A DNA stretch of 64,000 nt, from positions 1,987,630-2,051,629 of the forward strand of contig JADJEE010000012.1 in NCBI GenBank assembly GCA_016709225.1, in the 5' to 3' direction. Positions 34,040-37,204 of this stretch are shown piece after piece. The translations under genes were made by a program, and so were the position numbers. The notes below the pieces were generated by a model that ran no database searches, was not told the origin of the DNA, and worked only from the letters and a program-made list of their open reading frames with translations. The stretch is from Deltaproteobacteria bacterium. Its GTDB lineage: Bacteria > Myxococcota_A > Polyangia > Nannocystales > Nannocystaceae. The stretch's first letter is position 1, and each line of letters begins with the position of its first letter.

Positions 34040-35725
34040 ATGCACGACGTTGCCAAAGGTGCAGTGCTCGCACCTGTAGAGTTCGAAGTCGAGCCCAGCC
34101 ACTACCACCACTGGAAGGTCAGCTACGACGGTGCGATCGCACGCGTGGCGATGGCCGTCGATCCGGCGGCGCCACTTCGCGACGGCTACGAGCTGAAGCT
34201 CAACTCGTACGACCTCGGCGTCGACATCGAGCTGGCCGACATCGTGCGTCGCATGCGATTCGAGCACCCCGAGGTGCGCGCGGTGGTGCTGACCTCGGGT
34301 AACGACCGGGTGTTCTGCGCCGGTGCCAACATCAACATGCTCGGGCTCTCGAGCCACGCGTGGAAGGTGAACTTCTGCAAGTTCACCAACGAGACCCGCT
34401 GCGAGATCGAGGATGCGACCGACGCGAGCGCGCAGGTGTGGCTGGCCGCATGCAACGGCACCACCGCCGGCGGCGGCTACGAGCTCGCGCTGGCCTGCAA
34501 CGAGATCTATCTGCAGGATGACGGCAACTCGGCGGTCAGCCTGCCGGAGGTGCCGCTGCTGGGCGTGCTGCCCGGCACCGGCGGACTCACGCGGCTGGTC
34601 GACAAGCGCAAGGTCCGTCGCGACCGCGCCGACGTGTTCTCGACCACCGCCGAGGGCGTGCGCGGCAAGAAGGCCGTGCAGTGGAACCTGGTCGACGCGG
34701 TGTTCCCCCGCTCCAAGTTCGACGAGAAGGTGCTCGAGCGCGCCAAGGCCGTCGCCGACAAGGCCGCGGTCGGGCTCGCGCCGGGCGAGCGCAAGGGCGT
34801 CGCGCTCGGCAAGCTCGCACCCGAGATCACCGACAACGGCCGCCGCTATCGCCACGTCGCGCTCGAGTGGGACGACACCACCCGCGTGGCCAAGCTGACC
34901 GTCGCAGGCCCCACCGCCGACGACGTCGCGGTGGTCGAGCGCGGCGGCGAGGCCATGCGCACGGCCGGCAGCGATCTGTGGTCGCTGCGTGCGTGGCGGG
35001 AGCTCGACGACGCGCTGCTGCACCTGCGCGTCAATCACATGCAGGTCGGGCTGGTGATCGTGCGGACCACCGGCGACCTGCAGCAGACGCTCGCCCACGA
35101 CGCCGCGCTGGTGAAGGCACGCGAGCACTGGTTTGCGCGCGAGGTGCTGCTGCACATGGGCCGCGTGCTGCGGCGCTTCGACAACACCAGCCGCTCGTTC
35201 TTCGCGTTCGGCGACGCCGGCACCTGCTTCGCCGGCTGTCTGCTCGAGCTCGCGCTGGCCTCCGATCGCTTCTACATGCTCGAAGACGAGGACCACCCGG
35301 TGCACGTCGCGGTCTCGGAGCTCGAGGAGGGCGCGCTGCCGATGCACACCGGCCTCACGCGGCTGCAGACGCGCTTGCTGGGCACGCCTGCGCAGCTCGA
35401 GGAGCTGGTCGGCAACCGCAGTCCGCTCGACGCCGAGGCGGCCGACGACGCGGGCCTGGTGACCGTGCGACTCGACGGCATCGACTGGGACGACGACACC
35501 CGCATCGCCATCGAAGAGCGCGCGAGTTTGTCGCCCGACGCGCTCACCGGCATGGAACAGAACCTTCGATTCCCCGGTCCCGAGACGCCCGACAGCAAGA
35601 TCTACGCGCGCCTCACCGCGTGGCAGAACTGGATCTTCATCCGTCCCAACGCGACCGGCCCGGCCGGCGCACTCACCCTCTACGGGCGCCCGGAACGGCC
35701 CCAATTCGACTGGCAGCGCGTGTAG
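34040..35725 (+). CDS. boxC: Benzoyl-CoA-dihydrodiol lyase (BoxC), an enlarged crotonase-fold enzyme
   Basis: About 560 aa. The crotonase motif VFCAGANINMLG is present, and the protein is immediately followed by BoxB. Overall organisation and length match BoxC. Confidence 0.7.
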   Translation: MHDVAKGAVLAPVEFEVEPSHYHHWKVSYDGAIARVAMAVDPAAPLRDGYELKLNSYDLGVDIELADIVRRMRFEHPEVRAVVLTSGNDRVFCAGANINMLGLSSHAWKVNFCKFTNETRCEIEDATDASAQVWLAACNGTTAGGGYELALACNEIYLQDDGNSAVSLPEVPLLGVLPGTGGLTRLVDKRKVRRDRADVFSTTAEGVRGKKAVQWNLVDAVFPRSKFDEKVLERAKAVADKAAVGLAPGERKGVALGKLAPEITDNGRRYRHVALEWDDTTRVAKLTVAGPTADDVAVVERGGEAMRTAGSDLWSLRAWRELDDALLHLRVNHMQVGLVIVRTTGDLQQTLAHDAALVKAREHWFAREVLLHMGRVLRRFDNTSRSFFAFGDAGTCFAGCLLELALASDRFYMLEDEDHPVHVAVSELEEGALPMHTGLTRLQTRLLGTPAQLEELVGNRSPLDAEAADDAGLVTVRLDGIDWDDDTRIAIEERASLSPDALTGMEQNLRFPGPETPDSKIYARLTAWQNWIFIRPNATGPAGALTLYGRPERPQFDWQRV

Positions 35726-35782
35726 TCGACCCACGGTCGGACCACACCAAGTGCACGCTCACAAGGAAGAGACCCGCACACC

Positions 35783-37204
35783 ATGACGACTCCGAATGTC
35801 GATCTCGATGGCAAGATCCCCAACAACGTGGGGCTCGCCGACGATGTGAAGCTCCGCCGCGCGCTCGAGACCTGGCTGCCGCAGTACCTCGAGTGGTGGA
35901 ACGACATGGGCCCCAGCGACTTCGCCGACAAGCCGGTGTTCCTGCGCACCGCCGTGTCGGTCGAGCCCGGCGGCTGGGCCCACTACGACTACGTGAAGAT
36001 GCCCGACTACCGCTGGGGCATCTTCCTCGACCCGAGCCCCGAGGCCGCGCTCATCAAGTGCGGCGACGACACCGGCAAGCCCGCATGGGCCGACGTGCCG
36101 GGCGAGCACCGCAACACCCTGCGCCGCATCATCGTCACGCAGGCCGACACCGAGCCGGCCAGCGTCGAGCAGCAGCGCATGCTCGGGCACATCGCACCCA
36201 GCCTCTACGACCTGCGCAACCTGTTCCAGGTCAACGTCGAGGAGGGCCGTCACCTGTGGGCGATGGTCTACCTACTGCACAAGTTCTTCGGCCGCGACGG
36301 TCGCGACGAGGCCGACGAGCTGCTGCTGCGGCGCTCGGGCAACCCCGACAAGCCGCGCATCTTGGGCGCGTTCAACCAGCCCTGCGACCACTGGCTGTCG
36401 TTCTTCGCGTTCACGATGTTCACCGACCGCGACGGCAAGTACCAGCTCGCGGCGCTCTCGGAGAGCGGCTTCGATCCGCTCGCCCGCACCACGCAGTTCA
36501 TGCTCACCGAGGAGGCCCACCACCTCTTCGTCGGTGAGACCGGCATGGACCGCATCGTGAAGCGCTCGGCCGAGCTGCAGAAGCTCGACAAGAACGGCGA
36601 CGTCCGCAACCAGGGCGGCATCGACTTCGACCTCATCCAGCGCACGATCAACTACTGGTACACGTACAGCCTCGACCTGTTCGGCGGCGAGATCTCGAGC
36701 AACGCCTCGACCTTCTTCGCCACCGGCTTGAAGGGTCGCTACCGCGAGGACCAGTACTCCGATCACCGCGCCATCGACGGCAGCTACCGCATGCCGGTGG
36801 TCGAAAGCGGCAAGCTCATCGAGCAGGACGTGCCGGTGCGCAACGCGATGAACGAGGTCTTGCGCGACGCCTACGTCGCCGATTGCGAGCGAGCGCTGCG
36901 CAAGTGGAACAAGACCCTCGAGGCCGCCGGCTCGCCCACGCGCCTGTCGCTGCCCAGCCGTCGCTTCCACCGTCACCAGGGCATCTACGCCGAGAGCAGC
37001 TTCGATCCCGCGGGCAACCTCATCAGCCGCGAGGAGTACGAGGCCAACAAGCACAAGTGGATCCTGGTGCCCGAGGACAACGCGTACCTCTTGTCGATCA
37101 TGAAGCCCTGCTACGAGCCGGGGAAGTTCGCCAACTGGATCGCCGCGCCGAACAAGGGCATCGAGGGCAAGCCGGTCGAGTTCGAGTACGTCCGCCTCGA
37201 CTAG
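35783..37204 (+). CDS. boxB: Benzoyl-CoA 2,3-epoxidase oxygenase component B (BoxB, a diiron enzyme)
   Basis: 473 aa, the typical BoxB length. Diiron-ligand-like EEAHH segment (MLTEEAHHLFVGETG). Several conserved Trp/His blocks. Confidence 0.75.
   Translation: MTTPNVDLDGKIPNNVGLADDVKLRRALETWLPQYLEWWNDMGPSDFADKPVFLRTAVSVEPGGWAHYDYVKMPDYRWGIFLDPSPEAALIKCGDDTGKPAWADVPGEHRNTLRRIIVTQADTEPASVEQQRMLGHIAPSLYDLRNLFQVNVEEGRHLWAMVYLLHKFFGRDGRDEADELLLRRSGNPDKPRILGAFNQPCDHWLSFFAFTMFTDRDGKYQLAALSESGFDPLARTTQFMLTEEAHHLFVGETGMDRIVKRSAELQKLDKNGDVRNQGGIDFDLIQRTINYWYTYSLDLFGGEISSNASTFFATGLKGRYREDQYSDHRAIDGSYRMPVVESGKLIEQDVPVRNAMNEVLRDAYVADCERALRKWNKTLEAAGSPTRLSLPSRRFHRHQGIYAESSFDPAGNLISREEYEANKHKWILVPEDNAYLLSIMKPCYEPGKFANWIAAPNKGIEGKPVEFEYVRLD

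Follow-up and report, generated by a model that had tools for sequence, protein, structure and literature searches.

A boxC-boxB gene pair with no boxA nearby is a conserved unit in Nannocystaceae and allied lineages

Introduction

The aerobic benzoyl-coenzyme A (CoA) pathway, or Box pathway, is a genomic marker for the degradation of aromatic compounds at low oxygen, usually scored by the joint presence of boxA, boxB and boxC. How, then, is a locus to be read that carries boxC and boxB only? Such a pair lies in a 64-kb stretch of DNA from a Nannocystaceae bacterium (assembly GCA_016709225.1, contig JADJEE010000012.1, positions 1,987,630 to 2,051,629), hereafter the window, which is of high GC content (0.68–0.73 over most of its length). 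The original prediction, made from the letters alone, recognised here the genes of a benzoyl-CoA-dihydrodiol lyase (BoxC) and of the oxygenase subunit of a benzoyl-CoA 2,3-epoxidase (BoxB), with no gene for the reductase BoxA beside them. The locus thus raises the questions of whether the two genes form a functional unit and of which protein would supply BoxB with electrons.

Identity of the gene pair

The two genes run in the same direction, with a gap of 57 bp between them:

34040–35725, plus strand: boxC, 561 amino acids (aa); match to TIGR03222 and to 2W3P, catalytic Glu conserved
35783–37204, plus strand: boxB, benzoyl-CoA 2,3-epoxidase diiron oxygenase subunit, 473 aa; match to TIGR03225 and to 3PER/3PM5, diiron ligands present

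The coordinates and sizes first given for these open reading frames (ORFs) are exact, and both proposed identities were borne out. Against the equivalog model TIGR03222 (benzo_boxC) the 561-aa protein scores 764 bits, with a cut-off of 712, over the entire profile (1–548 of 548); it has the double crotonase-domain architecture of about 555 aa, and its residues 9–561 align to residues 7–556 of the 2W3P chain, BoxC of B. xenovorans (E = 6e-175). The 473-aa protein scores 703 bits against the equivalog TIGR03225 (benzo_boxB; cut-off 499, profile 1–471 of 471) and aligns end to end with the A. evansii BoxB structures 3PER, 3PF7, 3PM5 and 3Q1G (E = 2e-169). Pfam returns a generic crotonase fold for BoxC and a sub-threshold PaaA/PaaC match (weak PF05138) for BoxB.

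The active sites are complete. The diiron ligands of A. evansii BoxB are E120, E150, H153, D211, E240 and H243, and its benzoyl ring is positioned by Q116, T119, S123, F193, F203, F206 and T210 (PMC5489048). The window BoxB has the same six ligands, as E124, E154, H157, D215, E244 and H247, and the same seven benzoyl-CoA-pocket residues, unchanged as Q120, T123, S127, F197, F207, F210 and T214; both sets are invariant or nearly so across 81 BoxB sequences. Two glutamates in the GGGxE and PE motifs of BoxC are ascribed a catalytic role (PMC4498308); their counterparts in the N-terminal crotonase domain of the window protein, Glu148 (GGGYE) and Glu170 (PE), are invariant in 64 homologues. The ratio of nonsynonymous to synonymous substitution rates (dN/dS) against close relatives is 0.16–0.29 for boxC and 0.12–0.27 for boxB, the pair with L022 boxB (2.6) having been left out as an alignment or frame problem (loci of other genomes are cited by L numbers).

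The original prediction had allowed for the possibility that the two proteins would group with crotonase or diiron families other than Box. A neighbour-joining tree of the 81 BoxB sequences places the window BoxB within the Box family, inside a Myxococcota clade; as the tree covered BoxB only, the identity of BoxC follows from the equivalog model, the 2W3P match and the invariant catalytic residues. In the phenylacetyl-CoA epoxidase system PaaABC(D)E, as in the Box system, a diiron oxygenase forms an epoxide on a CoA thioester before an enzyme of the crotonase fold takes over, and BoxB is a structural homologue of PaaA; however, PaaA requires the structural subunits PaaB and PaaC and the class IA reductase PaaE, whereas BoxB is a monomer with specificity for benzoyl-CoA (PMC4498308). 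It is the Box equivalogs, not those of Paa, that the window proteins match.

Both proteins are orthologous to those of the canonical Box systems of Aromatoleum (Azoarcus) evansii and of Burkholderiales such as Paraburkholderia xenovorans LB400 and Mycetohabitans rhizoxinica pBRH01. Identity to the Mycetohabitans proteins is 58% for BoxB and 54% for BoxC, and the likeness extends to the diiron ligands, the pocket residues, the catalytic Glu, the order of boxC before boxB and the short gap between them. Judged by their sequences, boxC and boxB of the window are intact orthologues under purifying selection. Both already carry box names in public annotation, and the enzymes themselves are ordinary orthologues.

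Absence of boxA from the window and from related loci

What sets the window apart from the canonical clusters is the gene content around the pair. The cluster of M. rhizoxinica pBRH01, which served as the positive control, consists of the ligase gene, boxR, boxC, boxB and boxA; in the canonical arrangement boxA lies directly 3' of boxB, and the ligase, BoxD and BoxR are encoded in the same cluster. The window has neither boxA after boxB nor a nearby boxR, benzoate-CoA ligase gene or boxD. Among about 30 ORFs spanning the whole 64 kb, called by GC bias at third codon positions and scanned against Pfam, none encodes a reductase combining Fer4 with FAD/NAD domains, an AMP-binding ligase, an aldehyde dehydrogenase or a thiolase. 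In tblastn searches of the window, Mycetohabitans BoxA and benzoate-CoA ligase gave a best E of 2.7, BoxD and BoxR queries gave no match at E <= 1e-6, and no trace of a boxA pseudogene was found. The claim that boxA is not adjacent to the pair therefore holds, both immediately outside the pair, where it was looked for again, and across the entire window. Beyond boxA, the ligase gene, boxD and boxR are likewise unlinked to the pair.

The arrangement is no oddity of one locus. The exact window BoxB sequence is found in metagenome-assembled genomes (MAGs) labelled Deltaproteobacteria or Nannocystaceae, and a BoxB scan with one genome per species returned 80 loci, in 61 of which boxB directly follows boxC, at a distance of 5–231 bp. 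Of these boxCB loci, 57 belong to Nannocystaceae and other Myxococcota, among them Nannocystis exedens, N. punicea, N. bainbridge, N. radixulma, Plesiocystis pacifica, Paraliomyxa miuraensis and three strains of Enhygromyxa salina, and four to MAGs labelled Planctomycetota. No BoxA homologue is encoded in any of these 61 non-Burkholderiales loci, with up to 10 kb examined on each side; at least 1.3 kb of sequence past boxB is available for 53 of them and at least 5 kb for 44. In the same scan, boxA lies directly 3' of boxB in all seven Burkholderiales loci with the orthologous boxC-boxB pair, four of which also have the ligase gene upstream, and several boxR together with the ligase gene. No ligase gene, boxD, boxR or transporter gene occurs within 10 kb of the pair in any Myxococcota locus.

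The boxA-less layout is also that of the N. punicea FL3 chromosome and of N. exedens DSM 71 (an 11.3-Mb contig). The flanks of boxCB vary between genera and the pair is kept, which marks the pair itself as the conserved, selected unit. In the BoxB tree the Planctomycetota-labelled sequences form a clade sister to that of Myxococcota, and canonical proteobacterial BoxB falls outside both. The boxA-less boxCB module is thus fixed across Nannocystaceae and allied lineages, as the rule; this is a new comparative finding, the literature searched having yielded no report on box genes in Nannocystaceae or Myxococcota.

A box locus with no BoxA orthologue in the cluster is also the mark of the 'IC_FM' class of incomplete proteobacterial box clusters, in which BoxA is absent next to the ligase and which is read as complemented by a second, complete cluster (PMC10803450). 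IC_FM genomes have a full boxABC elsewhere, on a megaplasmid, whereas in Nannocystaceae the boxA-less state is family-wide and no complete cluster is present among its scanned loci.

A palindromic operator upstream of boxC

A further difference from the canonical systems is a lineage-specific palindrome in the control region of boxC, for which the following features (no strand assigned) were recorded:

33648–34039: divergent intergenic control region of 392 bp, between a protease gene (minus strand) and boxC (plus strand)
33744–33757: degenerate third operator copy GTGGGTGCACGCAC, with one mismatch; alone no better than chance
33833–33846: distal operator copy GTGCGACAGCACAC, exact; palindrome core GTGYG-N4-CRCAC
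33964–33977: proximal operator copy GTGCGGCTCCACAC, exact; 76 nt 5' of the boxC ATG

When the upstream regions of close relatives are aligned, a conserved block with GTGCGGCTCCACAC appears 60–90 nt 5' of the boxC ATG, and changes in its half-sites preserve the palindrome (GTGTG..CACAC in L014, GTGCG..CGCAC in L015). The core GTGYG-N4-CRCAC has exactly two matches in the 64-kb window, both in the 392-bp region, and is present in one to four copies 5' of boxC in 53 of the 53 Myxococcota boxCB loci for which upstream sequence is available; none of the Burkholderiales, other canonical or Planctomycetota-labelled box loci scanned has it. Related loci totalling 1.3 Mb contain 131 matches, of which 111 lie within 300 bp 5' of boxC, about 14 slightly further upstream in the same regions, 3 before boxB genes that stand without boxC (solo boxB) and about 3 elsewhere. 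With its flanking bases the palindrome reads C-GTGYG-N4-CRCAC-G; the copy nearer to boxC is usually 55–90 nt before the start codon, and copies are commonly spaced 31 bp apart. With one mismatch allowed, the search of the window showed no enrichment (23 sites found, 36 expected).

The palindrome looks like the operator of a dedicated, putative regulator, specific to this lineage and unlike the BoxR system; because no boxR is present, that regulator would be unrelated to BoxR. A scan of metagenomes for double operators as a route to further regulon members was discarded, since 78 of the 80 loci listed were GT/CA simple repeats or chance matches in low-GC sequence. The other two were a chance match in a coding region (L146) and a genuine boxCB locus (L137).

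Solo BoxB paralogues

A second clade of BoxB paralogues exists in Myxococcota, 68–75% identical to the window BoxB, encoded without boxC and with all active-site residues kept (L006, L007/L055, L008, L056, L059, L060, L062, L064 and L066; BoxB at about 10001–11420 in most). Such solo genes are often found in genomes that also have the boxCB pair, and in three of these loci the operator C-GTGYG-N4-CRCAC-G is present; that the boxCB module has a palindromic operator of its own, and that a solo BoxB paralogue shares it, are further new comparative findings. The neighbours of solo boxB include genes for cytochrome P450 (P450; L056, L060), a large acyl-CoA dehydrogenase (L006, L062), an AMP-ligase (L066) and, in L007, an acyl carrier protein (ACP), a ketosynthase (KS) and an FAD-monooxygenase.

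It is also worth recording that acyl-CoA dehydrogenases of 590–640 aa are encoded in several loci with a BoxB paralogue (L006, 7069–8943; L062, 6937–8850; L048; L083, 8002–9765). The family includes members from Myxococcota (L006, L062, L048) and from a Comamonadaceae MAG (L083), with an Acyl-CoA_dh_C domain in L006 and L083. In L006, L062 and L083 the gene lies 0.2–1.2 kb 5' of that of the BoxB paralogue, and the two may constitute a recurring gene pair.

A probable two-gene operon and the proposed source of its electrons

With moderate confidence, boxC and boxB can be considered a functional operon that relies on a reductase provided in trans, from a boxA gene not linked to it. The two products would be the stoichiometric core of the aerobic benzoyl-CoA pathway, which is CoA-dependent and forms an epoxide. 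BoxB would epoxidise benzoyl-CoA to 2,3-epoxybenzoyl-CoA, and BoxC, in complex with BoxB, would relieve the product inhibition of BoxB and open the ring hydrolytically, giving 3,4-dehydroadipyl-CoA semialdehyde and formate. Transcription would start in the 392-bp region 5' of boxC, under a putative regulator binding C-GTGYG-N4-CRCAC-G, and probably end at a hairpin past boxB. The two electrons needed per BoxB turnover would be delivered by a reductase whose gene lies at another site in the genome, given that the boxA-less layout is common to about 57 related species. The likeliest donor would be an unlinked BoxA-type [4Fe-4S]2/FAD NADPH reductase, another ferredoxin or a reductase of the ferredoxin-NADP reductase (FNR) type being possible; a dispersed pathway with boxA elsewhere is the parsimonious assumption, as linkage to the pair is likewise lacking for the ligase, BoxD and any regulator. 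The original prediction had put forward the same two alternatives, a distant boxA or a different reductase serving BoxB.

The biochemistry of the canonical enzymes is consistent with such an arrangement. BoxC is recovered together with BoxB on purification and is required for the relief of its product inhibition, whereas BoxA does not co-purify, is present at far lower abundance and suffices in minor amounts, which implies a transient interaction (PMC4498308). The strict linkage of boxC to boxB, and the lack of it for boxA, would thus reflect the difference between a stoichiometric partner and a transient catalytic donor.

Several points weigh against an unlinked boxA. A set of 5.8 billion proteins was searched with Mycetohabitans BoxA and with a profile built on ten divergent representatives of BoxA-like proteins; the best 120 matches listed for each were all Burkholderiales-like and included no Nannocystaceae boxA, a result which is not evidence of absence. 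A search of cluster representatives gave about a dozen full-length BoxA-like clusters, and the divergent ones that could be inspected do not accompany BoxB. Among seven BoxA-like proteins whose context was examined, five are encoded beside Rieske, KshA-like or P450 oxygenase genes, one in a steroid-degradation-type cluster with a P450 and one in a canonical proteobacterial box cluster; none is myxobacterial. Moreover, the module of boxCB only occurs in Planctomycetota-labelled MAGs, and if this reflects a transfer of the pair alone, no dedicated BoxA is needed. Finally, no activity, expression or growth data for these organisms were found in the literature searched.

In a tentative alternative, less probable than the unlinked boxA, there is no BoxA orthologue and BoxB receives its electrons from a shared redox partner that is not orthologous to BoxA, for instance a housekeeping ferredoxin with an FNR or a reductase that also serves P450s or Rieske oxygenases; boxCB would then be a self-sufficient, transferable two-gene module. 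The absence of boxA in cis from 61 of 61 loci under two phylum labels speaks for it, as does the transient, sub-stoichiometric nature of the BoxA-BoxB interaction (PMC4498308). Metagenomic contigs in which BoxA-type reductases are encoded next to Rieske, KshA-like and P450 genes point the same way, as do the P450 genes beside solo boxB in L056 and L060, which likewise have no adjacent reductase gene. This distribution suggests that reductases of the BoxA type serve several oxygenase classes and not BoxB alone, which makes it plausible that BoxB is served by another reductase.

Against this alternative stands the lack of any candidate: all-against-all clustering of 1132 ORFs from the loci revealed no conserved alternative reductase beside boxCB, and the single FNR-like match, in L071, is an AsrAB/sulfhydrogenase-like fusion present in that locus only. 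Since the ligase and BoxD are unlinked as well, lack of linkage says little about loss. To our knowledge, all characterised Box systems use BoxA. A wider form of the same proposal, in which Nannocystaceae and the Planctomycetota-labelled MAGs possess a BoxA-independent, horizontally mobile boxCB, with a palindrome regulon that includes solo BoxB and possibly a new aryl-CoA substrate, is equally doubtful.

Proteins encoded on six metagenomic contigs (L089, L092, L094, L097, L099 and L220) have the BoxA architecture of two [4Fe-4S] motifs and an FNR-like domain; they are 41–48% identical to LB400 BoxA, and their genes adjoin those of Rieske ring-hydroxylating, KshA-like or P450 proteins, not boxB.

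It is rather unlikely that the pair has a different role altogether, namely the removal or transformation of benzoyl-CoA (or a closely similar aryl-CoA) produced by secondary metabolism or in the breakdown of phenylalanine, and not growth on benzoate; BoxB might in that case also act as an epoxide deoxygenase under some conditions, a side activity that has been discussed (PMC5489048). Such a role would fit the absence of ligase, boxD, boxR and transporter genes from the 10 kb around the Myxococcota pairs, the lineage-specific regulation unlike the BoxR system, and the solo BoxB paralogue with its shared operator and its P450, large acyl-CoA dehydrogenase and ACP/KS contexts. Yet the residues positioning the benzoyl ring are unchanged, BoxC is kept beside BoxB, as ring opening would predict, and nothing points directly to another substrate.

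Flanking genes and local history of the locus

The local insertions given here were defined by alignment with the nearest relatives, L013, L009 and L058:

19061–31811: insertion of 12.7 kb relative to the nearest relatives, of lower GC (0.59–0.66)
22204–23898, minus strand: IS66-family transposase, within the 12.7-kb insertion
25382–28048, minus strand: S8 peptidase, 888 aa, within the 12.7-kb insertion
29731–30930, minus strand: rve integrase, within the 12.7-kb insertion
33647 (likely start, not 34073), minus strand: M11-like metalloprotease with a Big_7 domain, by the gene models of identical MAG contigs (L001)
37209–38987: insertion of 1.78 kb that separates boxB from the bacterioferritin gene and carries the lipoprotein gene; found in this species only (window and L002)
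37252–37266, plus strand: terminator-like hairpin CTCGCG-ACC-CGCGGG, then tail GTGTTTCGTT, 48 nt past the boxB stop
38979–39446, minus strand: bacterioferritin (TIGR00754, 212 bits), convergent to boxB

Upstream, the divergent MYXO-CTERM metalloprotease that had been named as the neighbour of boxC is indeed there, as an M11-like protein with Big_7 and a MYXO-CTERM-like C-terminus (...GCACNQPGEG..LVLALGGLALGWSLRRPRRE). Downstream, the next gene had been described as that of a lipoprotein with thrombospondin-type-3 and Gly-rich sequence. The description is correct, as the product has a lipobox, Asp repeats like those of thrombospondin type 3, and long Gly-rich stretches, but the gene is not a natural neighbour, having arrived with the recent 1.78-kb insertion. 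In eight close relatives the bacterioferritin gene is directly 3' of boxB, and in relatives without the insertion only about 120–170 bp separate boxB from this convergent gene, which leaves no room for boxA. As reconstructed from these relatives, the ancestral order is the divergent M11-like MYXO-CTERM protease gene, boxC, boxB and the convergent bacterioferritin gene; the position of an iron-storage gene beside that of a diiron enzyme may be a coincidence.

The presence of a transposase and an integrase gene nearby, and of an insertion exactly where boxA would be expected, might suggest that the pair is the remnant of a decayed boxCBA cluster, or that assembly or binning has split off boxA. 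This is highly improbable and was rejected: both frames are intact, with dN/dS of 0.12–0.29 and invariant catalytic residues; the same layout is found in genomes of isolates that are complete or nearly so (N. punicea FL3, N. exedens DSM 71, Plesiocystis pacifica, Enhygromyxa salina); and the insertion-free relatives have no space for boxA, of which tblastn detects no pseudogene trace.

The hairpin after boxB is the sole such site in the 33.5–39.8 kb region, for which shuffled sequences gave a mean of 2.2, and as a terminator it is suggestive only. Further from the pair, the commonest neighbours of boxCB are the genes of EPSP synthase and of a tRNA-U5-methyltransferase-like protein (22–23 loci), which lie 2–6 kb 5' of boxC in L004/L051, L013–L015, L019 and others; in the window the methyltransferase-like gene is at 16584–17975, displaced by the 12.7-kb insertion. 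About 3 kb of that insertion (19.1–22.2 kb) contains no convincing ORF.

Other features of the window

Some features distant from the pair are given for completeness:

1394–7090: TonB-dependent receptor with CarboxypepD_reg, two ExbD genes and a TonB gene
7227–7952: OmpR-type response regulator, after the TonB/ExbD genes
42958–43032, plus strand: tRNA-Arg (anticodon TCG), the sole Rfam or ARAGORN match in the window
51216–57164, minus strand: ORF of 1983 aa with an M48 peptidase-like region, DUF4011, an SF1 helicase (AAA_11/AAA_12) and a C-terminal MTES_1575 restriction-endonuclease-like domain
58862–62862, minus strand: DUF1552 (HXXSHH) gene adjoining a DUF1592/DUF1588/DUF1595/DUF1585/DUF1587 (PSD/PSCyt) gene

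A gene pair of the last kind, DUF1552 with a DUF1592-type gene, is also found about 3 kb 3' of boxB in L003.

Implications

A family that keeps boxCB linked, under selection and separately regulated will be scored as 'incomplete' in marker surveys, whether or not its members are degraders. If these genomes should prove to have no BoxA, BoxB would work with a generic reductase; such an enzyme would be useful where an epoxidase is to be employed heterologously, and the minimal Box system would have to be redefined. The operator, in turn, provides a direct means of identifying the remaining members of the regulon in these bacteria.

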